This document shows positions 3,143-53,915 of a stretch of DNA of 64,000 bases, in pieces. Below the pieces are notes generated by a model that had not been told where the DNA came from, did no database searches, and was given only the letters and a program-made list of their open reading frames with translations. Positions within the stretch are counted from its first letter, which is position 1. Every line of letters starts with the position of its first letter. The stretch covers positions 755,797-819,796 of the forward strand of contig NC_090597.1 of NCBI RefSeq assembly GCF_000497125.1. Direction: 5' to 3'. Source of the stretch: Spironucleus salmonicida (taxonomy: Eukaryota). The translations under genes and the position numbers were made by a program.

Positions 3143-4993
3143 TCATTCCTGTATGCCAGCAGACCCTTCAACAGACACCGATGTCTTCTTTTTCTGCCTC
3201 ATAAACCAGAATACCCCGCCACCTATCGCACCAGCAACAATCAAAACTGCAATTACAATGCCGGCAATAGCTCCACCGGAAAGGTTATTTTTAGACTTAT
3301 TACCAGAGATAAAGCAGAACGCACCAACAGCTTCAGCTCCCTCAGTGCACCCAGTGCAGACCTCGTCCGCAAGCTAGTATCCTGGAATGCAAGAATCGCA
3401 TTTTGTGCTATCAGTCCCGCTGCATTTGAAGCAGTTTAACGCACTTTAGCATTTGCATGCGACGGTCTAACTATCACTCCCACACGCCACTATTTAATCC
3501 CCTACGCAGACCATGCCATCAGTACCAGCATCTTTACAGTCTTTTTCGCATGTCTGGTTTATGCTCATCGTGTGCCCAGTAGCACAAGTATCGCACCTTT
3601 CGCCGTTACGTGAGCAGCTCTTGCATACTTCGTTGCATTTGGAGCACATATTTTAGCTCATGAAAAAGCCTTCCAAGCACTCGTCACAAGAACCCAAATC
3701 AGACTTCTTGTACCCAGTGAGGCAATTTTCGCATTTTTTCGTGTCCGCGGTCTCACAGGTTGCGCAGTTTACGGCTAAATCGCACTCGCACTGCTCAACG
3801 GTGTTGCCAGCGCAGGCTGTACAAGCACCAGCCTAGAGGAAAAAGTTAGGCTTGCACAACTGGCAGACTGCTTTATCCCCATCGCAATTGGCGCAGTTAT
3901 CGCCGCAATTAGCGCAGGAAGTTCCTTCCAAAATGAAGCCTGGAAGGCAGCTTTTGCACTTGTTAAGCATATTCTCGCAGGTAGCGCAGTTATTAGTACA
4001 GGTTTTGCAGGTCGTTTGACAAATTTCAGAAGAGGCGCATTCGGAATCTGTTGAGCAGTTTTTGACGCATTTGTCGCCTGCCACGGTAAATCCGGTTGTG
4101 CAGGCGGTGCAGACGTCCTTTCCGGCTTGGCAGGTCATGCAGTTCAAGTCTGTGCACTTCTCGCACTTGTTAGCCTCAACAAAGAAGCCGGAATCGCAAA
4201 CGGTACAGTTGGTGTCAGACGAGCAGGTTATGCAGTTCACTGAGCAGGCTATGCAGGTTTTCGGGTCCGTCGTTGTGTCCTCGAAAAATGTTGGCTTGCA
4301 GGTCAAGCAGGGTGTGTCAGCAGCTGGGTTGTAGTTTCCGATGCAGGTGGCGCATTTCGTGTTGTCGGTGACGCAGGTGGCGCAATTCGCAGCACCCGTG
4401 CATACACAGGGCTTCATCTGAGCAATTTCGCAAGGGGCGCAAGTGGAACCGGTCAAAACGTTGCCATTGGCGCAGGTCTTGCATTCGGTGGCAGACGTAC
4501 AGGTGAGGCAGGTGGCAGGACATGCTGTGCAGGTTTTTGGAGCGGTGGTGCTCTCAAAAAAGCCGGTTTTACAGGTAGAGCAGGGTGTGACGGCATCTTA
4601 ATTGTAGTTTCCGTTGCAGGTGGCACACTTCGTCTTATCGCTGGCGCAGGTGGTGCAATTAACGGCGGCTGTGCACACGCAGGGCTTCATCTGATTGGCA
4701 GTACATGTCTTGCATGTATTATCCTCTAAAAAGTTATCGTTTTCACAGACAGAACAGGTGGTTGCAGTAGTGCTACAGACTTTACATTTGGAGTCACAGG
4801 ATGAACATTTTATTCCATCAAGAAATTAGCCGTCTGCGCAAGTGGCGCACATTGTATCTTCTAAGGTGGTACCTGAGCAAGTAAGGCAACCTTCAGTGCA
4901 CTTAATGCAGACTGCTTCAGCGGTACCGGTTCCTGTTGGGCAATAATTGCCTTCATTGCAATTATTTTGGCTATCAGTACAGGTTCCGGACAT
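3143..4993 (-). CDS. cysteine-rich membrane protein (CRMP2-type, VSP-like), 616 aa
   Basis: Table 6 frame: ctaaaaATG MSGTCTDSQNNCNEGNYCP..., CXXC arrays, two 273-bp modules (ATGs at 4690 and 4417), TM GGAIAGIVIAVLIVAGAIGGGVFWFM, tail RQKKKTSVSVEGSAGIQE-TGA. Length 1851 = 617 codons, in frame with ORF 3833..4456. Confidence 0.9.
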
Positions 4994-7612
4994 TTTTAGT
5001 TAATGAAATTTTACGATAAGTGCTTTAATTCATAAATAATTAGGATTAAATAGTTTCGCTTTTTTGTAATAAGCGGTTAATGTGGATTAACTACTCTAAA
5101 ATTAATATTATAAAATAATAAAAACAGTAAAAAATAGTTCTTGATTTATATCGATGATAACTTAATATACTGTTAATTTTTATATTTTTTAAAAGTCAAA
5201 TAATACGTAAAATTATAAGTAATAAATATATTTCATTACAATAATGCTTGTCATATATTTTATTTATTTATTTATTATTAATCATGAGTTGTTATCAATA
5301 TTATGTAATAATATTATGTATTAAATATATAAATATAACTATTATTTTATATTTTTATTTATTTATTATGTTTATTATATTATTATTTCTCTATAGTGAT
5401 TTTTAATAATAAGTTATTTTATATAAATATATATAAAATATAAGAACAATATATATTATTAAAAGCAATATTTATACCTAAACCGATAATAGAATCAAGA
5501 TATCATACGATTATTATGTGTATACAAATATATTTTAATATTTAAATTTAATAATGTAAAATTTTTAAAATTTACAATTTAGTTCTCTATTGAATCGAGG
5601 TATGTATGCTGTTTAGGTTTTAACTATAATTTTAAGATGTTTATGACCAAATATGAATTTCATAGAAGTGTAGATTTCTTTATATTTGAAATAATTTTTA
5701 TTTGTAGTCAATCATTTTATATGATGATAAATTTTAATAAAATATATAAGTATTACAAATATATCGTTAGAATTTAAGCATATACTTTGCAGTCAAAGCT
5801 TATTCGATGAATGGTAGATTTATTATTATATTTAAATCGAATATATATTATGTGAGATTACTTATACCAAATATGTATTATCATTAAATATTATCAAACA
5901 GTAACATTTATTTCAAACATTCATCTGTTTTAATGTTAATATATTAATATTTGTAAATCATAACAGCAACTATCTTGATAACTTACAATTTAAAATTTAT
6001 ATCAATACGTTACAAATATTAGTTATTATAATCCTCATTCAACAATATTTGTTCTACACTAAATAAGTACAATAAATGTCCTTTTAAGGAAATGGAAATT
6101 ACTATTATTTTTAATTTAGATAATTGTAAAAATAGTTTGTTTTGGTTAATAAATAATTAAATCATTATCATAAACCATTTAATTTCATATTTAATTAATA
6201 AATTACATAACTAAAATATATTATAATATATAATTTAAGTAATATATAATAATCGTGCTTCAGATATTATTATATTCACTTTAATAAGCTAGTTTCTATT
6301 ATTAAGATTTAATTTTTCAATAATTTATTATTCTAGAATTAAGTAACTAGTACTAACAGCATGAACCCGTAGTCTCTAGTTTAAAACCGTCAAAGTCATT
6401 TTTTATGACCGTGTTGTGATCATAACCATGACTTGCCGTTTTTTTTAACCGAAATCGACTGAACCATACTTTTAGAACGTATTACTTACTACCCCATTAT
6501 ATGAATACGATCAAAGGCAAATTTGACTAATAAATGATCAACAAACATAGAGATTAAATTATAAAATAGAAACAGAATAACTTAACAAAATAACATTTCA
6601 ACCGGCCAGGGTGGAAAGCGATCGTTCTAGAGATTGTAAGAGGGCCGGGTAGCGTTAGGTCAGAATTCGAATTAAGCATCCTATGAGACAAACTAGATGT
6701 GTTTTTAATCAGATAAGCTCATAGAGTAAGATGTCAACAAGCTCAACAACATGGGATAACTTCTCAATATCAAATTTGACTTCATTCTTTATAGAGCATA
6801 ATTAAGATGTCACATTCAAGAAAGTAAATACATAAAATAGTAATTCTTGAAAACACTATTTTTATGTTTATAAAATGGAACACAACCACACAGCGTTTGT
6901 ATAATCAAACACTAAAGGTATTCTACAAAAATTGTAGCAAGTTATATAACAATACTTCAAGAGGGAGTTATCTCTTTAAGAGTACTACTAAAAATAATAG
7001 CAATAAAAGTTATAGCTTCATCATATTAAATTATTGAAAAATAAGCTATTTGAAATATCATAGGATGATTTAAATGATTCTTAAACTAAACTATTGAAAC
7101 AAAATATTAGTAAGATTAGAAAGATCAGATCGTAATAACAATCAGATAAAATTAAAATAGGTTAAGAGAATAAATATTAAAAAGATTACAAACATATATC
7201 TATTTTAAAAGATTAAATAAAGTAGAACAATAATTAAATATCACTCATACTAGAAAAATAAATCTCATCTGTATATAAAAACAAATAGATTAAATTATTA
7301 AAAACTAAAACATAAAAGTACAATGAGATGATCAACAATGTAAACGATAGGGCTTAATGAATCATCTCATAGGAAAGAATTAGATAGTTTAATGACATAA
7401 TTACTAAAATTAATTAATTAGACTCAAATGCTTTGGTCAATGAATAAGTAAATGACTATGAGTAATTTAATGTAGAAGATGTTACCTTTGCTGAAAGAAT
7501 TAATGGAGAGTTCAACTTACCATAGATGATGCTCCCTCGTATTGAAACGATAGAATACTTTCCACTCGAATCTCCACCTTACTGCCCATAAACCCTGATA
7601 CCAAGTAAATTA

Positions 7613-9628
7613 TCACTACCTGCTAAAATTCTACTTCTCTATTTCCTAATTAACCTTGGTCTTCTTCATGTACCAGAAAACACCACCGGCGACTCCTCCC
7701 ACCACAACCAGAACCGCGATAACAATGCCTGCAACTGCACCGCTAGAGAGGTTGGTACTGAGCGTCTCGTCCTATAATATGCACAACTTTCCAACAGCAG
7801 TGTACCCATCCGCGCAGCCATCGCACTGTTAATTCACAAATTTGTAGCCTGCCATGCAGGACTCGCATTTTTCCTTATCCGAACTATCGCATTTGAAGCA
7901 GTTTGCAGCATCTTTACATTTGCACGCAGTTATCTGATCATTACCTCCACATTCCACAACATTATCGGCCGTACAAACATTTCCATCATCCATTTCACCC
8001 GTGCAATCCTTCTCGCACGTCTAGTTGATGCTCATTGTGTACGAACTGGCGCATGTATCGCACTTTTCAACGCTTTTCGAGCACGTAGCGCAATTATTAT
8101 TGCATTTCGTGCACACCATTCCGACCATCAAATAGCCGTCGGCGCAGATCGCGCAAGTTTCGTCTTTAGCCTTTTCATAGCCAGTGATGCAGTTTCCGCA
8201 CTTTGCTGAATCGGAAGAATCGCAGGTAGCACAATTTTCTGCATTCCCGCACGTGCACTTTTCCGTTTTGTTTCCATCACAAGCAGTACAGGTTCCTTCT
8301 TTGGCGAAAAAACTGTTATTGCAAACTTTACAAATATTTTTGTCATCCGCGCAGTTCGCGCAGCCGCTGGGACAGGCAATACATTTTTAGTTTTCGATGA
8401 TAAAGCCAGATTTGCAGGTCGTGCATTTTTCAACAGTCTCCTTGCACGTGGCGCAGTTGTCAGAGCAGGTTTTGCAGATTTTGTCGCAGATTTGGTTGAA
8501 CTCGCATTCAGCAATGGCGGTGCAATGTTTTACGCATTTACCACTTTATACCGAAAATCCATCTTTGCACGCCGTGCAGGTGCTTATTTGAGATGGACAG
8601 GTATTGCAGTTTTCGTCTGCGCAGGATACGCAGTAATTTGATTCGAGCGAAAATCCATCAGCACAAGCTGTGCAATTGGAGCTTGAAGAGCAGGTTGTGC
8701 AGGGCGCATGGCAGGTTACACACTCGTGTGGGGTTTTAGAAGTGTCCTCGAAGAATTTGTCCTTGCATTTCGAGCAAGGGATGGGTCCGGAGGGGTCAAA
8801 ATTGCCGATGCATGTTTTGCATTTACTCATATTAGCATCGCATGCCTGGCAGTTTTTGGCGGTTGAACATGTGCAGGCGGTAGTTTAGGTTGATGTGCAG
8901 AGTACGCAATTTTTGTTTACAAGCGAAAATCCATCCTCGCAATCTGCACATTCGCCAGCTTCGTTTAATTTCCAATGCGGCAAACAGGTTTCGCACTAGT
9001 CCTAAGATTTATTACAAGAGGCACACTAGGAGGCATTGCCACATTTGCATTCTGACGTCAGGTCTGTAACGCAAAGCTTTGGAACACCATTTTCACAGTA
9101 ATTTCCGTTATCAATATTTTCACATTTCTTAGTACATTATCCTTCTACTGTAGTGACAAATTCATTAGGCTCGCAGAAATCGCAAATTGTTGTTGAAGAG
9201 CATAACACGCAATTATGAATGCAATATTAACACGTTAGTGTAGCTGGATTACAGAAACCTTGGTTGCTGGCGGCGCATGTATCTGAGTTTTGACAGGTTG
9301 TTTCACAAAGTTTGGTATCTGGATTCATTTTGTAGCCATTGGAGCACGTAATGCAAGAATTGGGGTCTGCACAGGTATCGCAGAAAAAAGGACAGTTTTC
9401 ACATTTGTTATTTTATAAAAATGTATTACGCACGCATGTAGAGCATTTTTTGTCAGTACATTCTTGGCAGTTGTCTATGGGTTTGCTGTCTTAGCAGTAA
9501 CAACTTTAACCATATTCCATATCTTCAGAGCATGGCTCACAATTTACGGTCGTTGAATCTTCTGCAGGGCAAAAATATCCAGCGTTGCAGTTGAGGACGG
9601 CATTTGAGCATGTACCAGTTTCGGTCAT
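7613..9628 (-). CDS. cysteine-rich membrane protein (CRMP2-type), 671 aa
   Basis: MTETGTCSNAVLNCNAGYFCP... to GGVAGGVFWYMKKTKVNQEIEKQNFSRQ-TGA. Length 2016 = 672 codons, in frame with ORF 8546..8830; ends TAGTGA. Confidence 0.9.
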
Positions 9629-10680
9629 TTTCTGAAAATAGAACTTCGAAATATTATATTAAACTTGATGTAAATGATGATATGGATTTTAGTTTTTAAA
9701 AAACAGTAATATTAATTTATAGTAGTAATATATAATTGTTAAAACACAAATTTGATATACTCATGCAAACATAGATTATATTAATATAAATGATTGTATT
9801 TATAGATACTTAATTATTACAGAAACTTCATAAATTAGCCTGCATCTATGTAATAATCTATTCCAGGTTAAGAGAGTTTTATTTAATAAATTGTTACTTA
9901 ATATGTAACTAACATTAATTTTAGAAAATATAATTTGTCATTTAGTTTTATAATTATTATATACATATGATAACTTAACAATTGGTTATAGTTATCTTAT
10001 TTATTATAATATATTTCTGTGAATTCTAAATAATGAACTAATTGTATATATGTTGATTGAATAATTTCTGGAACTTGGTTATAATTTTACTATCATTAAT
10101 AGCAGTACTTAACAAAACGAGTTAAACTGTCAATTTTCCAACAATTTAATAAATAGCTAGATTATATCCATTAAGAAAGCATAAATTACTTAAGATATAA
10201 ATTTCAAATATTATCAGAAATTCAATGAGCACAAAATATATTTCCCGCTGATTTCCTGTACATCTGGATGTAACTTGCTTACTTAGATGAATTTTATACG
10301 AATTAAGTAGGCTTTGGCTTTACATTGAATTTTAAGTATTAATTGTATTAATACATAATTGAGCACAAAATAGTTTAGTACAAATGACACAGAATAATTA
10401 TATAATACCTCTAAATTATCATATTATATTTACCGATTTGCGTAATTATTATTTAGTATATTTTATGAAAACAATTAGTAAATAGCTATAAGTTTTAATT
10501 AATAGCTGAAACCGTACAACCACATAGTAGGAAATCGAACAGAGAGAAGCAAAAAGTCCATGATCAATTTCAGTTTAATAAAACAACTATGAATAATTTA
10601 TTTTAACAAAACCAAAAGGTACACATCACTTTTCTCTTGTACCTTTTGCTGCTACAGAAATTTATGTTTTGCATGATTTT
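9629..10680 (+). repeat. ~1.05-kb duplicated upstream region, copy 1 (copy 2 at 53916-54970)
   Basis: Near-identical non-coding sequence starts immediately upstream of the MTETGTC start codons of both genes, e.g. ttcgaaatattatattaaacttgatgtaaatgatgatatgg. Confidence 0.95.
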
Positions 10681-11199
10681 AAAATTATTTTGTAAGACTG
10701 TTTTATTATACTTAAAAACTTCATTTCAAAGTTCGTTTAGGCTACAGCGGGTCGTGAGAAATATGACACGTATGAGATTGTGTTTGAATGACCCGCCGCA
10801 TTAAAAACAATTCGAGGGTATTAACTTTTAAATTCAATATTGCGTTTTATCTATTTAACTCATTTTTCATACCAATAGATGAAACTATAATATTTAGAAA
10901 CACTTGATAAAGCGAGAAACGCTATGAAAATAAATTGAATAAGAACTAAAATAATATAGCAAAAATATAATTATTAAAATGAAAGTACGATAACTGATAG
11001 TTAACCATATATCTTTAATAAAAGATAATACTTATTTCCTTAAATAACAAATAAAATAAATTTAAAATTTAAAACATAAAATAATATAATGGCATAAAAT
11101 AAAATATGGTTAATTTTAGCCTGAATCGTAGCATATTTAACTTATAGACGATAAAATATAATAAGCAAAATATTAACAAAGAATATTACAAGATAGAGA

Positions 11200-11730
11200 A
11201 GTAAGTAACCATCCAAAAAGAGTAAGACAGCATTTATCAGTGTCCGAAAGGCTTAGTTATTTCATGGGTCGTAACACGAATTATAAAATTGTTATGTGTT
11301 TTTGGAAACCCACAAATGATCTAGTACTCTTTTGTGATTGTGACTTAGTTTTGCAAGGTTATTTCTAAATGTAAACATGATAATTCCCCTACTAATGGGA
11401 TTTAACATTCACATATCACCATATGATGTTTGGGTATATTATTGGTGCAGTTATCAGAATACTAGGCAATATTGGTCTAATTGGAAGTTTTGTTGTTTAT
11501 ATGTTCATCGTCAAGAAAAAACAATCAACTGACAGTAACCAATATCAACGGTTCAATTATAAAAATGTATAGTTAACTTATAACGATTCCACTAAAATAT
11601 CTCTAGAAATAATACCTACTATTGTAGCCTTGTATATTATTTGGGGACTGATCGATATTATTATATTTAAAACGATAAAAACAACAATTCGTGAGGAATG
11701 TATTAGCTAAAATTGGTAAAAAGGTTTCGA
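11200..11730 (+). pseudogene. CRMP 3'-end remnants (two TM/tail fragments)
   Basis: FGYIIGAVIRILGNIGLIGSFVVYMFIVKKKQ near 11430-11525, followed by a copy of the TM/tail of the gene at 62606-63517. Confidence 0.5.
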
Positions 11731-12206
11731 ATACTAGATTTAGATTTCAGAATATATTGCTAATCAGATTTATAATTATATGAATGATACTAATTTTAGG
11801 TTTATAAATATTTAACTAGATCCTAAACTTTGCAATTTCATAATGTGGTCTAACGTAATATTACAATTATATGCGGGAAATTATACTACACTATATTGAC
11901 GGCATACACCCAGATCAAATAATAAACTTACGATAAATTGAGAATACTAGTCTTTAGATAAGGTGGCGTACCAGTAATAGTCAATGCCGTGTTAAATATT
12001 ATAATGGTGAGTTTTGTCATTTTTGATAAATGTAAGTAAATATTATCTGCTGAGGCAAAATCAATTGCTACAGGGTAAGCATTGAAGAGATTCATCAAGG
12101 TATGTTAATTATCGACTATCTAAAATAGATAGAGCATAGTCATGTATGATAGCTAAAACTAATAGTAGTAAGGTATATACTAGAAAAATGTATTTCACGA
12201 AGAATT
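11620..12206 (+). repeat. diverged duplicate of 63400-64000
   Basis: Shared blocks: tattatttgggga, tagatttcagaatat, gtaccagtaatagtcaatgccgtgttaaatattat, gaggcaaaatcaattgctacagggtaa, ttcacgaagaatt. Confidence 0.9.
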
Positions 12207-15473: not shown

Positions 15474-17015
15474 ATGAATCCCTACATCTGCCCTACAAAA
15501 ACCTGTCCAGAAGGCACTGTTTGCCCAACCGCTGACAAAACAAATCCACAAATGTGTCAAGCGTGCGAAATATTCAACTGTAGGAAGTGTCAGTCGTATT
15601 CACGGGGCAAGTGTTAAGCATGCCGATATGGATACTACTTAGAGAGTAATACCTGCAAGGCATGTAAGGAAAACTGTGAAAATTGTGGCAGCCGCGGATG
15701 CTTCAATTGCATCCCAGGATACTTAGTTAAAGATGGTTAGTGTGTTAAATGCGTGTAGGATTGCAACATCTGTTTTGGGGAGTGGGCATGCAAAGAATGC
15801 AACCAGGGATTTTTTAAAGATAGATTCTATAATTGTTAGCCCTGCGCCCCAGGTTGCAGCGAATGCACTAGTAAATGGTCATGTAGCCGATGCTTACCTG
15901 ACCATAATTTTATAAATAAAGTGTGCCAGAAATGCCCAGAAAACTGTATAAACTGTGAAGATAATAAATGCTATGAGTGTGTAGACGGTTATAGAGCAAT
16001 AAAAGATGTATGCCTGCCCTGCCCAGAAAGCTGCAAAAAATGCTCCAGCCACTAAGAATGCTAAATTTGCAAAGATGGCTATTTACTTGATATGAAGTCT
16101 AATACGTGCACGCTCTGCAAAGCCAACTGCCGCGCATGTTCGTCGAAGGATGTATGCGGCCTCTGCAAAGACCACCACGATCTGGTTGGCGGTGAGTGCG
16201 TTCCGAGCGAATGCAACACAAATAACCTCTGCGGACCTACCTAGTTCTGTGATGCTAAGAGTACTGGTTCGACTTGCGTTAACTGCATGGAAGGGTGCGA
16301 TAGCTGCAAGACTTTAGAGGTTTGCAGTAGATGCTCAACTGGCTACTTGAAATAGGATGACCGCTGTTTGAAATGTGCTCCAAATTGCTAGCAATGCTCG
16401 GTAGTTGACACATGTAATTAGTGTTTGACAGGATATAGATTCACCAATGATTAATAGTGCGTAAAGGATTAGTGCGAAAATAAAAGAGGATGTTCTTAGG
16501 GTAAGAGCTGTAAAGAACTTGATTCTGGGAATATATGTATTTAATGTCCTGATTTATGTAAGGTTTGCTCTGACACAGACACTTGCACAGAATGTTTAAA
16601 GTATGCACGGTTTACATTGGATAAAAAGTGTGTAGAAGATTAATGCCAATAAAATATTAGCTAGTTCGCTGGATTTTACTGCAAGGTATAAGATAATGGT
16701 AATAGTTGGGAGTAGTGTCCTGCTAATTGCTTCACCTGTGATAGCAAAACTGTGTGCACCTAATGCAAAGATAATGCTCCTCCTGTAGACGGAGCATGTG
16801 TAATCTAAAACAACTAAATAAGTAATGGATCTATGATCGGAATCGTTGTTGGCATAATAGCTGTAGTTGGCATTGTTATAGGCGGAGTAGTATATGCTGT
16901 TTAAATGAAGAAAAAATCTAATTTAGTTTAAAAGAATAGTAATGTAAAACCTAATAAGTAAAACATATAATTTCAAATTGACGAATCAGTAAAAATACTG
17001 ACCAAAACTGAATGA
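15474..17015 (+). CDS. cysteine-rich membrane protein, divergent type, 513 aa
   Basis: MNPYICPTKTCPEGTVCP..., furin-like CXXC repeats, TM MIGIVVGIIAVVGIVIGGVVYAV, tail ...SVKILTKTE-TGA. Length 1542 = 514 codons. Confidence 0.9.
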
Positions 17016-21290: not shown

Positions 21291-21349
21291 TATTAGTTAT
21301 TTTTAAATACCTATAAATATAGTTATTAATAACAATATAGTATAAAGGA

Positions 21350-29444: not shown

Positions 29445-29499
29445 AAAGTATTTTAATTATTCACATTAACATTGATTATTATAATATTATAGAGACTTC

Positions 29500-35640: not shown

Positions 35641-36142
35641 GTACTGTAGTATGATTCTCATAAATAGCGTAAATGGGTTTTCATGTTTTTCTATTTTGCT
35701 AAGTTCGGACTAGGTTGGGTATCCAGAGCTAAACTCAGGCTGGGCTGGTATCCTGCATATTATATAAACTAGATACCAAAATTAAACTTCCGCTCCAATT
35801 AATATTAGACACTAACGTATTATAATAATTATGAAACCCTATGACGACCACAGAAGTTCACTGGCGGCCAGCACTCGCCCTGCACGGCCAGCTATCCCAA
35901 TACTAGCATGCACAGAGTATGCAAAGCCACAGACAAGACAGTGGGTGATTGATACTTTGAGTTATCAGCCTGCATCTTCCAGCCAGCAGTAATTATTGCG
36001 CCTCTCCGGAGCACAGTTTTAGCCAATATTAAAATTTCCACTTTCCCTTATTCCCCGCATCTGCTGCTCAAATCCGCACGGCCTACGCTCCCGCACCGCT
36101 AGAGGGTACTGGGGTCATCTAGCCATATTATGCCAAATTCTA

Positions 36143-41163: not shown

Positions 41164-42773
41164 TAGGATGTTGTTTGAATAGCTTTAGTTTTTAATAGTT
41201 ATATTTAACTAGCTATTTGGTATTTAGAAAATATTTACTACTCATTCAGAAGTAAATACTGATTAATATAATATATAGTACTGCTATAAAAATAAAAATA
41301 AATAACTGAAGGTTTGCTTATGGTAAAATTAAACTGCATTACTTATAAATTAATTAATTTATCGAGCTTCTATAAAATAGGGTAATACGTAATATGATAG
41401 AAAAATGTAAAATGTAAATGTAAATTATATGTATTATCAAAAATTTATCAGGTTTAATCCTTAAAAGTATTATGATAACTAATGAATATAATATTAACAT
41501 AAAAATATTTTTTCATCTAATTGAAGTTAGTCATTATCAGGTAAGGATATGACAGATTACAATGTATATTACTTAAATTTTACAAATTTAGTTAGTAAGC
41601 CTTAGATCAGAGCATAGATGGTACATAGATAGTAGAAAGTGAAAGTTCTTACCCAATAATGTAGTCAATGAACAAACCTATCTCTCTCACTACAGGTCAT
41701 AGAAATAATAAAATTTGTTCTATGTTAGTAGTGATACTTTAAGAAAGCATGTGATGGATAAACTAATGATAAATCAACGTTTAATAATATTATGAGAGAC
41801 TGTGTTGCAAGTTGAGTGCATTTATAGACTTAAATACTGATTAATGGGACAGATGGGATCTGAATAGAATTGGTGCCAAAACCTATCACTGCATCTTAAC
41901 TGAACATCAAGTAGAAATCTGCATATTAGCAGTAGGAAAATAGGACTTACGAAGCATCTGCGCAAATATCCAAACATAATAATATCGTACCAGCCAAACT
42001 TCTGATACCTCGGGAGTATCGGAGCATGGATACTAGCACGGGATCTGGTACGATTCCGAGTGACCGGCATGACCTATTTAGTGTCAGGCTAGCCGAGAAG
42101 AAGTAATTGAAACCATATTCGGCATTTTCAGCAATCTTTCAATTTAGCATATTAGAATGACATAAATATTTTTGAGTTTTGCATCTATATTAGTCTAAAT
42201 ACTATCCGAATATACCATTCACTGATAACGTGGTAATATGAATTATTTTATTATATTAGAATAATATTGCTAGCTTCGGCTAGCATAAAGTTGGCCTGAG
42301 TATTAATTATGTTGAAATACGTATAAGTCCAACTATCACCAGCAATCTGGTATTTAAGAAACTTACCAATAGTTCTACAATATGAAGTTTTCTATATAAT
42401 ATATGAATAATTTTTGGTTTTAGTTTTTGTTGTATTATATTAGTATGCACAACTATTATTAAACTCAATTTAAAGATTTGCGTGTTTTAAAGATTATAAG
42501 TTATTACATATTTTACTTAAACTATTATAGCACCACTCATGTATATAATAAAGGCATCGCCATTCCTTTTATTAAATCTACTGGGATTCATCTACAAGTA
42601 CTTTAAGTAAAACTTTACTAAATTAGACTTATTTGCACAATATGAATTTCACGCTTAATAATAAACGCTATCCATAAAATATTTCACTTCCACTTCAATA
42701 ACCAAAAACAAGAAACTGGAATCCTCGATAATATTAACAGTTATAATGTAGTCATGTTTTCACTTCTAACAAA

Positions 42774-45700
42774 ATGTAAAACTAGTGTACTTCTAGCGAT
42801 AACACTACCTGCGATGCAGGTTACTTCTGTCCATCAAACGCAGGAACTGAAGCAAAGGATTGCCTCGCCTGCAAATCAGATTGTGCCACCTGCACAGGAA
42901 CATCCGCAGAAGATGCAACATGTTTAACCTGCGCCGATGGAAAGTATCTTAGTGGGGGAGCCTGCACGGAATGCGACACCAAATGCGCAACCTGCTCAGG
43001 AAGTGAAGATACCGCCTGCCAAAGCTGCACTAACGGGAACTTTTTAAACGTAACCACCTGCGCCACCTGCGTTTCCGGAACCACCATGAACTGCACCTGC
43101 GGGACATCTCAGAACTGCTCGACTTGTTCGGATGATATGGCAAAATGCGCTACCTGTAGTGGTGAATATGATATGGCTGCGAATCCTCCTTGCTCAAAAT
43201 GCAAGGCAGGCTATTTTGAGACTTCTGAAACCCCAAAAACCTGCACAAAATGCGATGAAAAATGCGCAACGTGCACTGCGGCAGATTCCTGCCAAACCTG
43301 CGCAAACGGGAACGTACTAAACGGAAATACGTGCTCTGCCTGTGTTTCCGGGTAGACCATGAGCTGCACCTGCGGAACTTCTAAACACTGCTCGACGTGC
43401 GATTCTAATGAGATGACAAAATGCAAAACATGCATCAACGACTACGATCCAAATGGAGAAACCCCTTGCGAGAAATGCAAACCTAAATACTTCGAGGACA
43501 GTACTACAAGTCCTAGTAAATGCACAGCTTGTTCTTCGAACTGTATAACCTGCACTTCTAGCACCGTTTGTAACACCTGTGAAGATGGATTTTATATCAA
43601 AGATAATTAGTGCATAGCCTGCAATACAACCCAAATGACTGCCTGTACGTGCAAGGCTGCCAAAAACTGTTAAACATGTAAGTCTAGTGAGATGGGCAAA
43701 TGCGAAACGTGCATAGGAAACTTTGATGCTAAAGGCACCACTCCGTGTTAAAACTGTTTGGTAGGATTTTTCAAAGGGGGTGATTCTGGTACTGATACTT
43801 GCACAGCATGCGATGGTAAATGCGCAACCTGCACTGCATTAAACACCTGCTAAACATGTAAAGACGGAAACGTTTTAATCAACAGTACCTGCGTCCCATG
43901 CAGCACAAACCAAATGACTGCCTGCACGTGCCAGACTGCTAAAAACTGCTCAACATGCGAGACTGATACAAGTAAATGCAAAACGTGCATCAACAATTTT
44001 GACCCCTCTGGAGGCACTGCTTGCAAGAATTGCTTGCCAGCATTTTTCAAGCAGAACAAAGATGGTAATGAGACTTGCACAGCCTGCTCTGATAACTGCA
44101 CAAACTGTACGTCCGAATCCGCTTGCACAGCTTGCAAGGATGGGTTTTCGCTCGAAAGCAACTAGTGCGTATCCTGTGCAGATGAAAACTGCGCAGACTG
44201 CGCTTTAAACAAGAATAAATGCAAAAAGTGTGTGTATAACATGTATTTAAATTTCAGAACACAGTGTCAACAGTGTCTCAATGGCGATAGAATTCGATGT
44301 GATTGCGGTACGGTCGTTAACTGTGACACGTGCTCAACAGACACACCATAAACATGCGGAGATTGCCTACGTGGCTACGTAATTGACAAGTCCGGCTCCT
44401 GCACGATCTGCGCGCTGGATTTCGTCCAGATTGGCGATAAGTGCGTCAGGTGTCGGGCGAACTATTGCGAAAAATGCTCGGCAGACGCCTTAAAGTGCGA
44501 AAAGTGCAGAAATAATTTCGCTCCAAACCATGTTGGATGCGAAGCCTGCAGCTTAGACGGTCCCGAATGCGTCTGCTAGGCTGCGGTACACTGCGCCGTC
44601 TGCTCAGCAGATGGAGATAAATGCAAAAGCTGCGTGGCGGGTTATCAGATTGATGACAAAGAAACCTGCACGAACTGTGCAATTAATTACGTAAAAATTG
44701 GCGAGAAGTGCGTTAAGTGCTAAGTAGATAACTGCGATACCTGTTCGACTGACGCCTAAACATGCGTAAAGTGTAAAAATAACTTCGTTCCCAATGGTAA
44801 TAAATGTGATGCATGTCGCGATAACGGCCCCGAGTGCCTCTGCGGTACTGCGGTGAACTGCGCCACCTGCGCACCAAATGCAGACAAATGCAAAAGCTGC
44901 GTCGGGAACTTTGACCCCAAAGCGACCACCCCTTGCACAGACTGTCTGGATGGATTTTTCAAATCTGACGTCAGTGGAAAGAGCACCTGCACCGCTTGCT
45001 CGGATAAATGCACAAACTGCACATCAGCAGACACGTGCACGGCCTGCCAGGACGGGTTTAGTGTTGACGGCAATAAGTGCGTAACCTGCGAAGACACTAA
45101 CTGCAAGATCTGCTCTGCTAACAAGAATGTCTGCACTAAGTGCAACACTGGTTATCTAACTGTTGATGGGAAATGCGAGCGGTAGTGCTACCAGGGCTAA
45201 TCCGTCTGCGCCACCAACCAAATTTGCCTAACCACCTGCAAAACCTGCTCAGAGAACTGCATGACTTGCGAGGGGAGCATAGCCAGCTGCACCAGCTGCG
45301 CTCCTGGCTTTACTTTAGATCGCAGCTCATGCGCAGCGTGCTCTACAGGCTGCGCAGATTGCACTGGAAACAAGAACGTGTGCAATCTCTGTAAAGACGG
45401 CTATTTCGGTATCAGCGGGGTCTGCGCGCCATGCAAACAGAACGCTACCGCGCAGTGCGAATGCTCTGGGGCAGCTAACTGCGCGACCTGCAATAACGCT
45501 AAATCCGGCACCTGCGGCACCTGCATCGCCGGCTACAAAATGTCAGCTAGCAACACCTGCACGGAGTGCGCCGACGGTTATTTGATGGTGGACAGGGTCT
45601 GCACGAAATGCGAAAAGTCGTGCAAAATCTGCTACGAAAGCATCGATAAATGCAGCAGCTGCGCGGATTCGTACACGATGAGCATCAAACAGACGTGCGA

Positions 45701-46106
45701 AAAAGATTGCACCACTGTTCTAACGAATGGCAAAGCCTGTGTTGGCGGCAAAGTGGTCGAATGCGACGATGACTACGACCAAATAACGGCTTGCAAATGC
45801 GGAGCTGCCGTAAACTGCCAAGAATGCAACGAGCGTAACATGAACACCTGCGAGTCCTGCATGCCTGGCTATAAACTCATCGGCGGGTCGTGCGGACAGT
45901 GCGCTGTAGGGGCGACCACCGTTGGCCTTTTCTGCTTCGATCCCTCCATTGGGTCTTAAAACTTCCTTTCTGGAGGTGCCATAGCTGGTATTGTAATAGC
46001 AGTCTTGGTTGTAATTGGACTAGTTGCAGGCGGAGCTTTCTGGTACGTAAAGAGGTCTAAACATACACCTGCTGAAATCGGTCTTGTCGATAGACGTCTA
46101 TAATGA
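42774..46106 (+). CDS. large cysteine-rich membrane protein (CRMP2-type), 1110 aa
   Basis: MQNQCTSSDNTTCDAGYFCP...; ORFs 43086, 43359, 43914, 44853 and 45261 are all in one frame. Ends GLVAGGAFWYVKRSKHTPAEIGLVDRRLQ-TGA. Length 3333 = 1111 codons. Confidence 0.92.
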
Positions 46107-48640
46107 GAAATTTAATTTTTCATATAAATAAACATGGTGGGAAGATATAGTATAAATATAACAGAGATAGACTTATAAATTATTTTATGATAATTTTGGG
46201 GTAGATCGTCCGAATGAATATAATATGCTTAGAAGCTAATTTTAACAAAAATAGCCTATATATGAAAATATAGTCATAGAAAATTCTAATCATAGAAAGA
46301 GTAAAACGATATGCTAAAATAGAAATAATACCTAAGCTACACATTGCAATGAAAATTTTATTGGCTGAATACCTCCATATTGAGTAATTTTTTAAAGAGG
46401 ACCATAATAATAACAGATAGCCAGTTTAGCACAATCATGGTATTACTCTACGGTTCTCTATACTTTCAAAGCGCATGTTCTACTATTCTATCAGCAAGGT
46501 ACCTTTCAGTCTATCACACTTGAGTAGGATTTTGAATCTTCGTACATTCTTAATTAATCGCATTAGAGATAATTAATTTGCGTAGATTACATTATAAACC
46601 TCTAAAGTTATTTTGAACTTATATGAAAATATTATTTACAAAATATTATAATTGGAACATGCATGATGACAGAGTTACTATCACAATAATATGCTCAAGC
46701 AGCTATATTCAGCTAGCAATAGTAGCATATCAATTGCAAATTATTTTATATCTTAAATATACTTGGATTGCTAATGACGGAATCTGAGTATTCTCATGAT
46801 GGAATTATACAGAAATCGTGCTACAAACTATTTTAGCAGTTTGAACTCCATGCTATCATGTAACGAATTAGTGAGTAGCTATTTACGCATATAGTAACAC
46901 GTTACTAATAAAGTCAAACTTTTTAAAGTATGAGATTATTTCTTACCAGGACAATTATGGTAGAGAAAATCATTATAGGTAAATAGTTGAAATACTTACT
47001 GTTTCTACAGGATATCAATAATATTAGTTGCGTAGTACTTACTTACACTAAAATAGTCTGTTAGCGATAAATTACACAAATATTATTATTTGAAGCTCTT
47101 CTAGCAAAAGATCATTTTATCATGGCTAGGTATACTTGAGTAGTATGAAGTTCCAATTATCGATAAATGATGTTATAAATACACTATAACTTAGAAAGTA
47201 TCAGTTGAGTACTTTTATGTTGCTTCAAAGTATTAGCTTAACTAAAGTGTAGAAATACCAACATACAAGAATACATACGACAACAAATTTAAAAATCAAT
47301 CAGCACAAGTGCTTTAGCGACTGGAAGCATGGCATGTATATATTTTTGCAAATATTGAGTTTTGTTAGTAGACTACTACCGGATCTCATAAAGCTCTGAC
47401 TCTTATGACCCACAATGCTAAATTTCAGTGCCTAGCCTACGCAGCGTTGAAGGTGGCACGATTGATAATTTTGATACTCCAACATCATTTGGACAAATTT
47501 CAAAGCAGTCGCTCACGGCCATCCAGAAATAAATATTAGTGGTATGGAGCAGACTTATTTTCTGCCTACGCAATTAGTGAAGATAGGTTATCAGGCTGGC
47601 GCTGAATTAATTTCGCTATATAGTATCTTAATCAGTATTTAATGTATGCAGTATCAGTTAGATCACCATAGCCTACAATTTCGAACAACTTAGCTAATTT
47701 TATAGTTATTATTAAAATGATTGTGACATCTCCCAGTAAAATCAGCTTAACGGTGTAAATTTTGTATTTAATTATAATGATACTTTAGAGTCATATTTAT
47801 ATAAAATTAGTAAAAGTGTAATTAAATAGTAGATTTTTAATCAGAATTCAGCTACCTAATTGTAATGGAACCACGAGAATGAACTTGAAATAGAAAAGTA
47901 TAATATAATTAGCTTCGTTACTTTGTATGGTGTTTAAGGATATAAAGTACTAGATCCAATGTTGAATAATTTATTCAGTTTCGGGGATTTACAGTTACCC
48001 CTTTTCATATCATGCACTTGTAAACTAGCCTATTAATATAACTCAGCACTAACTGGAGAATTTTAATCTCATCCAGTAAGCACCTATTAACGCAAGCTAC
48101 CAGCTTTCAGGTTCAACATTTCTCATAGTAGAATATATTATCATATATAATATACTTTTACTATACATTAATAAATATATCCTATTATATAATAAAGCTA
48201 TAACATAAAACTGAAAAATACGAAATCCCCACATGACGTAGCAGCAGCAAAATCATTTCATCAAATTTACCAGTATCGGTAGAAAACTCCGCACTCGAGT
48301 ATGCAAATTTGCCAACCTCTGGACTCCAACCCGTCCTTGCGGAGGTCTAAAGTTTGCCGACCATCTCCTCTAAATTTCGCATTTAAAGCGCATCCGGATG
48401 TTCTATGACTGAACTGTTTTGGTTCGTAAAATGAAGGTCCTTACAATATGGTTATCCTGCATCCATGCAGGTACCTTGCATGCTTTGTTATTCTATGTTA
48501 GTCGTAATAGGAAATGGGAGCATTTAGCAATTTCGGGATTCGCGTTTTGGAACCAGTATTGTTAATGAGTTGCTTAGATTCACTAAGTAAACTGTTGGAG
48601 AATTGCGCAATTTCATATTAGTAGGGCTGCGCATAATCAT

Positions 48641-49941
48641 AAATTCAAGCCTAGCAAGGACTTCGAAGCTGTAAGTTTTAAATTTTATTCGGTAGAGTCA
48701 AGAAAACTCAGCTTGCTAGGTATAGAAGACGTGTGTTGCTGGACGTGGAATACTAGAATATGGACATTTTAAAATAGTCAAGAGTCTTAATAGGGTGCGG
48801 GCAGGATGGAAGTGAGTTTTCATTCAATATGATTGCGCTTTTTATATATAGGATGATTTAGGATATTTTGAGTAATATAAGAGTCAAAGTGTATTAGGTT
48901 TCATGGTAATGTTCATTTATTACTAGGCATGATATTCAAAGCTATTTCATTCTATATTTGATATTAGTTAATACTAGAGACACTCCATGCAAATGATACT
49001 TTTAATATTAATTATATATTATATTAAAATAACTTATTCTTAGTTTAGAAGAGAATAAAATCTACCTAATAGTAGAGCTACCTAAAAGGAATAGTATCCA
49101 TTAAGCAGGGAATATCAATAATGAAATTTCATGTCATTTAAAATAATTCAGCAACATAGAAATAATACATATTGCTTAATGGTATTTGCAGTCTCAATAT
49201 CGTTTTATTAAAGATTCGTAAACCATTTCTAGCTGAGTTTTGAAATTTTATTTAGAAAATAGCTTTAGTTCGCTAATAGCTAATAATATCAAATTCAAGC
49301 CTAGCAAGGACTTCAAATATGCAAGTTTAAGGGTCATTCGGTAGAGTCAAGAAACTCAGTTTGGTAGGTATAGAAGACGTATGTTGCTGGAAATTGAATG
49401 ATAGACTATGGGATATTCGAAATAGGTAAAAGACTTGCTAGGGCGCGGGCAGGATGGAAGTGGGTTTTGATACCGTGCGATTGTGCTTTTTATATAGGAT
49501 GATTTAGGATATTTTGCTTAGTGTGAGAGTCAAAGTGTATTAGGTGTCCTGGTAATGTTCACTTGTTACTAGACATGATATTAAAGGAATTCCATTCTAA
49601 AATACGATATTAGTTAGTATTTAGATATATTCCATTCAAATGATATTTTAATATTAACTATATATTATATTAAAATAACATATTGTTAGTTTAGAACAGA
49701 ATGAAATCTAACTAATAGTAGAGCTACCTAAGGAATAATATCCATTACGCAGTGAATGACAATAATGTAATTTCATGTCATTTAAAATAATTCAATAGCA
49801 TAGAAATAATACATATTGCTCAATGGTATTTGCAGTATCAATATAGTTTCATTAAAGCTTCGTAAACCATTTCTAGCCAAGTTTTGAAATTTTATTTAGA
49901 AAGTAGCTCTAGTTCGCTAATAGCTAATATTATCAAATTCA
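48641..49941 (+). repeat. diverged tandem duplication, period ~650 bp
   Basis: aaattcaagcctagcaaggacttc at 48641 and 49291. Colinear similarity continues to tagttcgctaatagctaat. Confidence 0.92.
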
Positions 49942-50068
49942 GTATATATCTAGCATAATTTAAATTGATAATGGGAACAATGATAGAATTGATTTCTGAA
50001 AAATCAACTCTTAAATTTCACATATACTAATAATACTAGAATATTCATGTGAAAAATTCAAATACTTT

Positions 50069-50550
50069 TCACTTCTTTGCCCTCTTGATGAAGTAATACG
50101 TTAGAACTCCACCGACGGCTCCCACCACCACCAATGAACCTATCACAATTCCCACCGCAACACCGCCTGAGAGGTTCCCAGACTCCTTTCTGGGGGCGAA
50201 GTAGAACGTTCCAATTTTAGAATAACCATCTTCGCAATTTTTACATTAATCAGACTCGAATTTATATCCAGGCAGACAGGAGCCACATTTTGTGCTGTCA
50301 TCGTTACAGTTGAGATAGTTAGTACCATTTGTACACTGACATTCAGTTATCTGTGCTTGGCCTCCGTAGACTGTAACAGCGCCACCAACGCAAGCATTTT
50401 CTTCTGCTTAATCTGTGCTGAAATCAACCTAGCATGTTCAGCGGGTGATCTTCTGATGTTTAGCGTAACACGTATCGCACAAATGAATCCTCTTGAAACA
50501 CGTAGCATATTAGTAAATCACCATTGTATAGCACATAAAAGAGCCAATGT
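50069..50550 (-). pseudogene. 5'-truncated CRMP1 fragment
   Basis: ...[44 protein letters not shown], close to the tail of 28476-29444. In-frame TGA near 50438-50440 and several Cys>Tyr/Phe changes. Confidence 0.8.
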
Positions 50551-51137
50551 GTGTGATTGAAAAGATATAATTAATCTATGATTCATATTCTGAAATAATA
50601 AATTCATCACCTCTTTTCAAAACTATTATAACTGTTTCATTACTCTTGAATGGGTACTTACCACTGAATTTTAACAAAATTACTGCATCTTGATGGAATG
50701 CTAACATGCGACGACACAAGCTTTTAGCTTGGTACTAATTGGGCCAACTTATACTAATAATATACGGAAAGCTCTATTTCAGTGTAGGATCTATCGATAA
50801 TGTTTCCAAAAATATTCAAACCAGGCATAGCGCTCCTAATTAAGCAAAATATAGAACTTCACAATTTATTTCTGGCCTGATACGTATTGACGCAAAGCAC
50901 ACAAGTTTATTGAATTTACAAAATTAATTATATTGACTTCTACTAACATCTCTTGTTTAATAATATCATGGTTGTTCATATAATGCTTCATCACCAATAG
51001 AAATATATGTACCGTCGCCCCAAACAAAGTCTAACTCAGTTGATAAATATAATACTGATTTATCATTTATCCTTCAAAAATAGCTTAAACTCTATTGTCC
51101 ATCTTACTACCCCTAAACCCTGATATCAAGTAAATTC

Positions 51138-53915
51138 TCACTTCAGGATAAAATTCAACCTTTCAATGTCCTAATTGGTCTTGGACTTCTTCATATACCA
51201 GAACACGCCACCGGCGACTCCTCCAACCACGGCTAGAACTGCGATGACAATGCCTGCAACGGTGCCACTGGAGATGTTGGTATTAGGCGTATCGCCTTGT
51301 AAGAAGCAGAGAGTACCAACGGCGGTGGCACCTTCCAAGCAGGTAGTGCACTGTTGATTTTCTAATTTGTAGCCTTTCATACAGGACTCGCACTTTCCCT
51401 TATCTTTATTATGGCATTTGAAGCAGTTTGCAGCATTGCTGCATTTGCACGCAGTTATCTGATTACTTGCTCCACACTCCACAATACTGTCAGCCGTACA
51501 CGCCTTTCCATCTGTCAGTGTACTCTTGCAGTCCTTCTCGCACGTCTAATTGATGCTCATTGTGTGCGAATTTGCGCAGGTGTCGCACTTTTTGATGGTT
51601 TTCGAGCACGTAGCACAATTATTATTGCATTTCACACAGGCAATTCCAACCATCAAATAGTCATCAGCACAGGCTGAACAGGTCTCATTATCAGCCTTTT
51701 TATATCCAGTGATGCAGTTTCCGCACTTTCCTTTATTAGAAGAATCGCAGGTAGCACAGTTAACTGCTTCCCCGCACCTGCACTGTTCCGTGTTATTTCC
51801 ATCACACTTAGTGCAGGTATTATCTTTAGCGAAAAAGCCTTCTTTACATATTTTACAATTATTTTTATCGCCTTCGCAGTTCGCGCAGTTGTTTGGGCAT
51901 GCTGAGCATTTATCGTTTTCTAAAGTAAAGCCAAATTCGCACGTCAGGCACGTGTCTACAGTATCTTAGCATATAGCGCAGTTTCCGGTGCAATCTTTGC
52001 AGATCGTATCGCAGATTTGGTTAGATCTGCATTCAGTACTGCTGGAGCACTATTTTACACATTTATTATTTTAAACCGAAAAACCATCTTTGCACACCGT
52101 GCAGGTGTCTTTATTACTTGGGCAGGTCTTGCAGTTTGCGTCAGTGCATACCACACAATTCTTGTTTTCGATCGAAAACCCGTCCTTACAAGCTGTGCAA
52201 ACTGATCCAGAGGTACACGTTGTGCAGTTAACAGGGCATACCGTGCAAGTATCGTTCCCAGAATCAGCTGACTTGAAAAATCCTGGCAAGCAATTTTAGC
52301 AAGGGGTGGATCCATCTGGGTCAAAATTGTTGATACAGGTTTTGCATTTTCCCATATCAGTAGAATCGCAGGTTTGACAGTTTTTAGCAGCTGTGCAAAT
52401 ACATACAGTAGCTTAAGTATTCGTGCAGGAAACACACGTATTTCCAGTTAAAACGTGCCCATTTTTGCAGGATGAACAGGTGTTTTCTTGGGTGCAGGTT
52501 GCGCATTTCTCATTGCAGGCTTTGCAAGTATCAGTTTCCAAATTATTTCCCTTGAAAAATCCTGGTAAGCATGTTTCGCAAACATTAGAATTTTTAGCAT
52601 CGCATGTTGCGCAATTCTCGGCCTTGCCGCAGTTGCACTTTTACGTCGAGTTTCCAATGCAGGTAATGCACCCTCCATCGAAGTTTAAAAATCCGTCCTT
52701 GCAAAGTTTACACTTACTTTTATCGCCGTCGCAGTTCAGGCAGTTGCTGCCGCACGCTGCACATTTATTGTTTTCTAAGATAAAGCCGGATTTGCAGGTC
52801 ACGCACTTGTCTACAGAACCCTTGCACGTGGCGCAGTTTCCGGTGCAATCTTTACAGATTTTGTCGCATATTTGGTTCGAGGCGCAGCTTCTGTCGCCGA
52901 TCTTACATGTTTTTTCGCATTTACCGCTTTAAAACAAAAATCCATTCTTGCAAATTGTGCAATTGGTATCTAAAGAGCAGATTAAGCAATTATCAATGCA
53001 AGGCACGCAAGTATCACCCACGGCAGAGTTTTCCTTATAAAATCCTGGTAAGCAGTTTTAACACGGAATCTCGCCTTTAAAATCAAAGTTTCTTAAACAT
53101 GTTTTACATGTTCCCGCAATAATATGGCAGGTAGAACAATTTTTCGCTGTTTTGCATGTGCAGGGATATAATTAGCTTCCAGTGCAGGGCATACACTGGC
53201 TACTTTCGAGCGAAAATCCGTCATAGCAAACTGCACATTCGCCATCTGAGTTAAAGTGCATATGTGGCAAACACTTTCCGCACTTCTGCGCATAGAAATC
53301 GCAAGAAGCACAATAGGAGGCATTGTAACATTTACATGCTGCCGTCAGATTTTTATCGCAATGCTTTGCAATACCGTTGTCACAGTACTACCCGTCTTGA
53401 ATATTATTGCATTTCTTAGTGCATTGACCTGTTAGTGTAATGACAAATCCCTTAGGGTCGCAAAAATCGCAAGTGGTGGTTGAAGAGCAAGACAAACAAT
53501 TCGCAATGCAAGGTATAGGCATTTATGTACCTGGATTACCGAAATATAATCCTACTGGCATACATCCATCTTCGCTTTTACAGGATAACTTACAAAGACC
53601 AGTCTATGGGTTCTTTTCGTAGCCTTCGGAGCACGTAATGCAAGAATTTGCGTCTGCACAGGTATCGCAGTCTAAAGGACACGTAATACATATGTTATTT
53701 TCTAAAAATGTCTTACGCCCGCATTTAGAGCACTGGTTCCCCGCACATTCTTGGCAGTTTCTTATTGGTTTGCCTTCTTCGCAGTAACAACTTTATCCAT
53801 AAACCATACCTTCAGAGCATGGCTGACAATCGACAACCGTTGATTGTTCTGTGGGGCAAAAATGTCCAACCTTGCAGTTGAATACTTTATTTGAGCATGT
53901 ACCAGTTTCTGTCAT
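51138..53915 (-). CDS. cysteine-rich membrane protein (CRMP2-type), 925 aa
   Basis: MTETGTCSNKVFNCKVGHFCP... to GGVAGGVFWYMKKSKTNQDIERLNFILK-TGA. Length 2778 = 926 codons, in frame with ORFs 52071 and 51171. Confidence 0.9.

Follow-up and report, generated by a model that had tools for sequence, protein, structure and literature searches.

Mixed front and back ends in the CRMP genes of Spironucleus salmonicida

In the salmon pathogen Spironucleus salmonicida, the genes that encode cysteine-rich membrane proteins (CRMPs) mix their front and back ends. This is apparent within a 64,000-nt stretch of the genome (C2:755797-819796, hereinafter the window), which belongs to the CRMP array of this organism, and across a sample of related loci: the same head, i.e., upstream DNA together with the encoded N-terminus, stands before different stalks, C-terminal tails and 3' flanks, and the same tail follows different heads. 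We consider it probable that the mixing arose by ectopic crossover or template switching at cysteine-anchored modules, accompanied by short conversion tracts. The original prediction, made from the letters of the window, pictured these genes as assembled from 5', middle and 3' cassettes, and the sharing on which it was built is borne out by alignment.

Genes D and H (labels are given in the list below), predicted to share about 400 bp of upstream DNA and the N-terminus, are alike over slightly more than that, from about -490 to +370 of the ATG (73.5% identity over 878 nt). Genes B and I have in common the MTETGTC head and 1 kb of upstream DNA, from about -1060 to +779 (85.7% over 1845 nt), with 94% identity in the upstream 1000 nt. 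At the opposite end, genes B, D, F and I are 73-79% identical over their final 1.15-1.5 kb, including the tail FW(Y/C)MKK(S/T)K.N..I, and have in common a 3' flank motif that is 68-88% identical over 40 nt among these four genes versus 28-38% in comparisons with genes A and H; within the window, the common 3' flank is short, about 30-60 nt for most pairs and about 315 nt for F and I. The tail of H is indeed different, its C-terminal end being FWYVKRSKHTPAEIGLVDRRLQ. Such shared blocks are expected by chance at E = 2e-140 or smaller. The extent claimed for the mixing, from 3143 to 53915, begins with gene A, but this gene takes no part: its head and tail stay together in 4 of 4 paired copies.

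The CRMP genes of the window and the parts of them discussed here are the following (window positions; h and t designate head and tail classes; label C denotes the gene at 15474, described with the other features):

Gene A, 3143-4993, minus strand: CRMP2-type, 616 aa; h4/t4, unreassorted; passenger on the 3' block of B
t0 3' flank motif, 7572-7612, minus strand; further copies at 23479-23519, 32792-32852 and 51089-51137
Gene B, 7613-9628, minus strand: CRMP2-type, 671 aa; MTETGTC head (h1) on the common stalk and t0 tail
Head-to-stalk junction of B, 8906-8950, minus strand: aa 227-241, CxxCxDG[FY]x6C
Upstream DNA of B common to I (94% over 1 kb), 9629-10684, minus strand
Upstream DNA of D common to H (about 70%), 21276-21768, plus strand
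Gene D, 21769-23478, plus strand: CRMP2-type, 569 aa; h0 head on t0 tail
Gene E, 28476-29444, plus strand: CRMP1-type, 322 aa; IKKAKK tail (t1)
Gene F, 30908-32791, plus strand: CRMP2-type, 627 aa; third head class, h3, on t0
Gene G, 36143-36997, minus strand: CRMP1-type, 284 aa, short stand-alone; h5/t3 in 4 of 4 copies, unreassorted
Upstream DNA of H common to D, 42286-42773, plus strand
Gene H, 42774-46106, plus strand: CRMP2-type, 1110 aa; h0 head and modules, then t10 body and tail
In-frame switch zone of H, 44181-44225, plus strand: coding nt ~1408-1452, motif CADENCADC...KCKKC
Gene I, 51138-53915, minus strand: CRMP2-type, 925 aa; h1 head followed by additional middle modules and by the t0 stalk and tail
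Upstream DNA of I common to B, 53916-54979, minus strand; stops at the edge of a 2.2-kb tandem array

Head and tail combinations across the family

Five genome searches with head and tail probes yielded 60 stretches, each 10 kb long. Thirty were selected because of hits and the other 30 to close gaps, so that the sample leans toward the probed classes. Motif searches of the resulting 61 sequences (60 stretches and the window) detected 62 heads and 84 tails, with 58 heads having a tail within 5 kb. After one head class with truncated upstream DNA was merged into h1, one tail was re-assigned and three genes missed by the motifs were added, the table comprised 61 genes, 57 of them intact with their own upstream DNA; headless remnants exist as well.

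The mixing set comprises 43 genes, of which 40 are intact; its 5 head classes and 6 tail classes occur together in 14 of 30 possible combinations. The h0 head of D and H is found in 14 genes, with t0 in nine, t1 in two, t9 in two and t10 in one (gene H); the h1 head of B and I stands before t0 in seven genes, before t5 in four and before t1 in two; and the h3 head of F precedes t0 four times and t1 and t2 once each. Six other head classes (18 genes, one class being a singleton) each hold to a single tail. Outside the table, three more genes with the head of the 3' partner of H bear a seventh tail.

Several further arrangements were seen in the sample. Headless t2-type CRMP bodies lie about 0.8 kb behind intact or broken t1 genes (L008, L013, L031, L032, L049), an order that is similar to that of the linear vsp arrays of Giardia, and the same t2-type body occurs with a head at C2:675403, 372891 and 388472. 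Two h1 genes (L001:5108-5950 and L010:3275-4936) are devoid of the same 26-residue N-terminal cap and differ in their tails, which implies that this deletion was either reassorted or recurred. A proline-rich PVPGPVP insert is located between the ectodomain and the predicted transmembrane segment (TM) in two short h1 genes (L006:3403-4338 and L001:5108-5950).

Gene class and the movable tail

The cysteine-rich frames of the window require that TAA and TAG be translated as glutamine (genetic code table 6), which is the code of hexamitid diplomonads; under this code the frames are full-length and contain 3-27 in-frame TAA or TAG codons per gene. Tables 1 and 11 were rejected given that the CRMP genes fall into fragments under both. 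A protein search with gene D returned 15 proteins; 13 of them have names, all of which designate cysteine-rich (membrane) proteins of S. salmonicida. Genes A, B, D, F, H and I fit the published definition of CRMP2 (PMC3916229; this and the other papers given by PMC number are cited for the available part of their text): they have 15.8-16.6% cysteine and 35-77 CXXC motifs (the definition asks for at least three CXXC or CXC), one hydropathy peak (2.3-2.8) close to the C-terminus and no other in any of the 6 genes, as called by a simple window scan rather than a TM predictor, and no [KR][KR]x[KR][KR] motif after the TM. Gene B, for example, has 15.8% cysteine, 38 CXXC, one C-terminal TM and no KKxKK. 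The motif is present in E and G, which are accordingly CRMP1-type. Pfam family PF03302 matches the window CRMPs over stretches of 41-136 aa only. The window genes do not encode Giardia variant-specific surface proteins (VSPs), as neither CRGKA nor a hydrophobic N-terminal stretch (signal peptide) is found in any of the 9 window proteins. CRMPs are numerous in free-living diplomonads, too (PMC11437800).

The KKxKK motif of CRMP1 is present in 10 of 10 t1 tails and in 0 of 21 t0 tails, and the t1 tail stands behind 4 of the 5 mixing heads. In the databases, h1 genes are called both CRMP1 (P0006, P0012) and CRMP2 (P0008, P0009). Since one head class carries both names and KKxKK moves between heads, the CRMP1 and CRMP2 classes, judged by sequence, track the swappable tail and not gene ancestry. 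Such movement of tails would explain the intermixing of CRMP1 and CRMP2 reported in a similarity network (PMC3916229).

Anatomy of the joins

Gene H is the clearest chimera, with a D-type head joined near 44181-44225 to an inverted gene copy. Up to coding nt ~1410, H resembles the t0-type stalk genes; from nt ~1452 onward, it matches C2:742043-745039 (minus strand), a gene with an unrelated head, at 96.3% over 1881 coding bases, and the similarity continues into the 3' flank at 99.3% over 2.4 kb. This partner is an inverted copy located about 55 kb away; the t10 body and tail that it shares with H otherwise sit behind a MEDIPG/MAETPG head. The 2 kb upstream of H, in turn, are 91% identical to the DNA upstream of C2:974532. 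The switch is in frame and falls at a C-x-D-x-N-C-x-x-C motif.

Short CRMPs of about 290 aa from three diverged classes, gene G included, match the head of B and I cysteine by cysteine as far as residue 241. Thus, what had been viewed as an MTETGTC cassette is the whole ectodomain of a small stand-alone CRMP. Most likely, B and I arose by fusion of a short-CRMP ectodomain to the stalk at CxxCxDG[FY], a direction that is suggested because the short form is widespread. At this junction (8906-8950 in B, about 53193-53237 in I), the short h1 genes of about 298 aa continue into a linker and the TM, and the long ones into stalk modules; CxxCxDG[FY] also precedes two module types within the stalk.

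In general, the middle of a CRMP gene is a variable string of a few modules that precedes a common membrane-proximal string. Across the classes, homology anchored at the 5' end stops at nt ~110-130, 205, 280-370, 565, 660-750, 930-1045 and 1330-1430. No fixed junction motif was found across the head classes: these ends lie in differing motifs, and only the h1 head end recurs. The joins fall at cysteine motifs and are in frame; survival bias may contribute to the high proportion of intact genes in the mixing set (40 of 43).

Duplicated blocks and conversion patches

The exchanged units are larger than the genes. The swapped blocks take in neighbouring genes and reach lengths of 3-9 kb or more: the 3' half of B moves with the entire gene A, the 3' part of D moves with gene E, which forms the far end of the block (22192-29457), and some 8 kb of upstream DNA accompany the 5' part of B, where the similarity to other h1 copies extends to about 17478-17863. 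The upstream block of H extends for more than 3 kb in comparisons with C2:974532, C2:1004980 and C9 copies. Farther upstream, D matches C2:873511-878139, a copy bearing a CRMP1-type tail. Further features of the window that belong to such blocks or mark their ends are the following:

Block starting in H, 44187-50503, plus strand; inverted duplicate at C2:743962-738288
Headless CRMP1-type tail remnant (t1), 50060-50511, minus strand; far end of the block starting in H
Broken CRMP remnants, 17190-18481, no strand; several duplication blocks stop here (17452-17863)

Both ends of the block that starts in H thus lie in CRMP coding sequence. We counted chained duplications of at least 2.5 kb and at least 85% identity (n=127); among their distinct ends away from the stretch edges, 110 of 218 are in CRMP coding DNA, against 27.6% expected, which we read as a roughly twofold enrichment and not as targeting because the ends are not independent and half of them lie elsewhere.

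The largest case is a 30.5-kb tandem duplication (C2:944483-999460) that begins inside a CRMP gene, is 99.98% identical in part, and sets an h1 head and an h0 head before identical tails: the genes at C2:942989 and C2:974532 differ in their heads and are identical from coding nt ~2290 of C2:942989 onward. A tandem repeat of similar size has been described (PMC9509377), which may or may not be this one.

Smaller patches appear to have been overwritten. In gene F, a conversion-like patch at nt ~1400-1550 is 96% identical to C2:974532/942989, which have other heads, and 81% identical to the close paralogues of F. Differences between close paralogues are clustered (p 0.0002 in 4/4 comparisons). 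For F, 128 of 170 sites have both alleles represented in third copies, as do 89 of 101 sites for C2:620631 versus C2:1011955, compared with 27-41% by chance.

Tests for recombination

We applied the pairwise homoplasy index (PHI; own implementation, 2000 permutations) to coding and non-coding alignments. It strongly indicates recombination in the last 1110 nt of 19 t0 genes (z = -24.6, p <= 0.0005), in 11 h1 heads (z = -20.3, p <= 0.0005) and in non-coding upstream DNA (z = -7.7 for 12 sequences and -11.0 for 9 sequences, p <= 0.0005). In 10 of 10 simulations without recombination that included rate variation, PHI was not significant (|z| <= 1.1); with every second informative site, the real alignment gives -14.1 and these ten simulations give -0.55 to +1.1. 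Separate trees for blocks of the genes, the check proposed with the original prediction, are incongruent: each third of the t0 alignment rejects the other two in 6/6 approximately unbiased (AU) tests (largest p 0.00078), so that the objection that congruent trees would raise falls away.

The ratio of non-synonymous to synonymous substitution rates (dN/dS), taken over whole segments, is 0.25-0.44 in 6/6 pairs, which gives no sign of positive selection at the level of whole segments. The cysteines are near-invariant, with 1 change across 6 pairs. In 5/5 pairs for which both were measured, coding DNA is less identical than the flanks (e.g., 78% vs 96%).

A model of CRMP diversification

Based on these observations, we propose a scheme that we consider probable. 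The proteins are type I membrane proteins built of an N-terminal cap, a small set of CXXC/CXC modules and a transmembrane tail. Given that array members share modules, homology-directed repair would start or end inside the coding sequence of a non-allelic CRMP gene, and would often do so within the cysteine modules because these shared modules are the most abundant homology; the route may be crossover, break-induced replication or template switching. As the copied segment would be several kb long, a head would bring with it its upstream DNA and the genes next to it on that side, and a tail its 3' flank and the genes downstream. The joins lie on conserved cysteine motifs and thereby preserve the frame and the cysteine register, in-frame products being expected because the cysteine codons set the register, and selection probably clears broken products. 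Later conversion tracts of about 100-300 nt would overwrite patches of both coding and non-coding DNA. The head is likely to represent the membrane-distal tip and the upstream block probably holds the promoter; the process would run over evolutionary time rather than being programmed.

This scheme retains the central idea of the original prediction, namely that recombination in the middle modules re-pairs the promoter and tip with the stalk, tail and 3' untranslated region, insofar as upstream DNA and N-terminus are re-paired with stalk, tail and 3' flank; it departs from the idea of fixed cassettes, against which stand the scattered ends, the blocks of 3-9 kb and the mosaic flanks.

Alternative explanations

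A more far-reaching possibility is dedicated, ongoing antigen switching on the time scale of infection, targeted to CRMP modules, pairing promoter and tip anew with stalk and tail, and replacing the absent control by RNA interference (RNAi). The genome has neither Dicer nor Argonaute nor an RNA-dependent RNA polymerase (PMC3916229), and the enrichment of block ends in CRMP coding DNA, the lower identity of coding DNA than of flanks, as though it were overwritten more often, and the intactness of the mixing set would all fit such a system; because C2:942989 and C2:974532 are identical from nt ~2290 on behind different heads, at least one event must have been recent. The boundaries are not fixed, however, non-coding DNA recombines as well, and later differences, numbering in the tens to hundreds, have built up at the junctions in the window (in H, 70 over 1881 nt). 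The dN/dS values, too, speak against switching, as do the many dispersed heads with their own upstream DNA, which give no sign of a single expression site. Moreover, 189 of 385 cysteine-rich genes respond to oxygen in bulk culture (PMC6397501), and the same paper calls antigenic variation of CRMPs untested. Dedicated switching therefore seems to us unlikely.

It is also conceivable that the apparent chimeras were made by the assembler switching paths between similar repeats, and the 99.98% identity of part of the C2:944483-999460 duplication shows that such repeats exist. Eight runs from two studies contain part of H, and four of them were compared over 41000-54900, all as contigs, which drop rare variants; the designation of runs X5 and X6 as RNA is a guess. 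A single short-read contig of run X6, from the second study, covers 51744-53621 with zero differences and so connects the I head with 650 nt of the stalk shared among these genes, and run X5 also bridges the junction of the I head. Furthermore, many diverged loci on two contigs repeat the combinations, with nine cases of h0/t0 and seven of h1/t0, and the partners differ by 1-27% rather than 0%. Despite the lack of a bridging contig for H, discussed below, an artefact is thus very improbable. Still less credible, in our assessment, is that no exchange occurred and that whole-gene duplication with uneven divergence of parts mimics reassortment. Many pairwise identities within the window are just 70-80%, and purifying selection with near-invariant cysteines could hold stalks alike; nevertheless, over 4.3 kb that include the flank, H is 96-99% identical to a gene whose head is unrelated, and upstream it is 91% identical to a third locus, the simulations with rate variation give no PHI signal, and the block trees reject each other.

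Several points weigh against recombination between CRMP modules as the source of the mixing. The head and tail classes hang on the chosen BLAST clustering thresholds. As many as 108 of the 218 block ends lie outside CRMP coding DNA, and the non-independence of the ends together with the choice of the first 30 loci by CRMP hits overstates the significance of the enrichment. The long h1 genes are all joined at one motif, a pattern to be expected from a preferred site just as much as from one ancient fusion. For H, no sequence was recognized as the true 5' donor at the junction; both alleles occur in sampled third copies at 13 of 70 coding differences from the 3' partner, and because this is the chance level (13-21%), the sampled donors do not account for the origin of these differences. 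No piece bridging the H junction was seen among 32 listed contigs of 587, where coverage gaps are uninformative; the join rests on the assembly and on neither partner being identical to H. Taken together with the evidence presented above, recombination at cysteine-anchored modules remains the explanation that we consider probable.

Other features of the window

In runs X1 and X3, a contig with approximately single-copy depth joins the internal repeat copies of I at 52838 and 51994 (an 855-nt offset); no exact match to this joint was detected in the 61 sequences, and it possibly comes from an unsampled paralogue or allele. Within the block that starts in H, the depth of runs X5 and X6 peaks in bins 47960-48887, where the window has no annotated gene, and a tandem duplication of about 650 bp (85%) is located at 48633-49941.

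Gene C (15474-17015, 513 aa) contains furin-like repeats only and no CXC; it is found nearly unchanged in at least 5 other places as a passenger of a duplicated block of 5-6 kb. The tail and 3' flank of gene 62510 (63404-64000) are repeated at 11624-12206 (85%) without the rest of the gene, and several duplication blocks stop at this repeat point. Between E and F, 29472-30499 comprises two tandem units of about 515 bp (79%), relatives of which are located elsewhere after CRMP1-type (t1) tails and before F-type heads. The region 54969-61886 contains about three tandem units of 2.19 kb (98%), each with an open reading frame (ORF) of 515-524 aa on the minus strand that has a hydrophobic end and no Pfam match; a similar array is present at C2:1041130-1047999. 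Behind G, the GC-rich (41-47%) region 34000-36100 contains ORFs without a Pfam match. In a Pfam scan of 10 non-CRMP ORFs of the window, none matched a recombinase, a transposase or any other family above the cut-off, although divergent elements could escape such a search.

Relation to known systems and implications

Programmed cassette systems of the vlsE, VSG or MSG kind have fixed boundaries or a recurring site, with a single expression site and a silent archive. No such fixed boundary is seen in the CRMP genes, in which the homology ends are scattered over nt ~110-1430. At the ends of segmental duplications, non-allelic homologous recombination or break-induced replication forms chimeric genes; the CRMP blocks are similar in that they are multi-kb direct and inverted copies with ends in dispersed repeats that fuse paralogues, and differ from general segmental duplication in that the modules encoding the surface proteins themselves serve as the repeats.

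Ectopic recombination of the var genes of Plasmodium falciparum involves diverged paralogues with 63% mean identity (PMC4270465). In var as in CRMP genes (~70-85%), crossovers between diverged paralogues keep the frame and the order of domains, form chimeras and move flanks, and both have several donors, no conserved breakpoint motif and some gene groups that stay out. By contrast, clone trees captured var events at rates reaching 0.2% per cycle, and these events kept the domain architecture (PMC4270465), whereas CRMP exchange is known from the end state of one assembly and the joins alter both module number and tail type. The vsp genes of Giardia, like CRMP genes, encode CXXC-rich type I membrane proteins of diplomonads; exchange, with GENECONV evidence, has been described among G. 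intestinalis vsp genes and between G. muris VSP and pseudo-VSP genes, some genes have near-identical upstream DNA and divergent coding regions, rearrangements are anchored on large families, and headless downstream members have been proposed as 'cassettes for recombination' (PMC2996952, PMC7641422). The VSPs have one invariant tail and a signal peptide, so no tail swap arises, whereas CRMP tails differ and are exchanged; CRMP donors are mostly intact genes, as opposed to the silent telomeric archive of Giardia.

The CRMP mechanism is therefore of a known kind, like var ectopic recombination and vsp exchange. For S. salmonicida, arrays of CRMP1 and CRMP2 and large duplicated regions have been described and gene conversion has been suggested for the arrays (PMC3916229, PMC9509377). 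The idea of an undescribed system is accordingly not supported, given the published recombination of paralogues in Giardia and Plasmodium and the suggestion already made for these arrays (PMC2996952, PMC4270465, PMC9509377). We found no description of head-tail reassortment of Spironucleus CRMPs in the literature, subscription papers and supplements being outside the scope of the search.

It would be a larger step to assume that frequent, ongoing recombination of CRMP modules swaps dilysine and non-dilysine tails as well as upstream DNA and so re-assigns where and when an antigen tip is shown. We doubt that this is the case; if true, it would give this diplomonad, which in contrast to Giardia is devoid of RNAi, a means of varying its surface by DNA rearrangement. 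More immediately, the present analysis offers a specific picture of the way in which a salmon pathogen diversifies its set of CRMPs, a matter on which the genome papers went no further than a suggestion. The defined junctions can be used to measure rearrangement rates between isolates, and the natural pairs of genes that share a head make the question of endoplasmic reticulum (ER) retention by KKxKK (raised in PMC3916229) directly testable. The new and most useful point is that the CRMP1/CRMP2 classification follows a movable tail.

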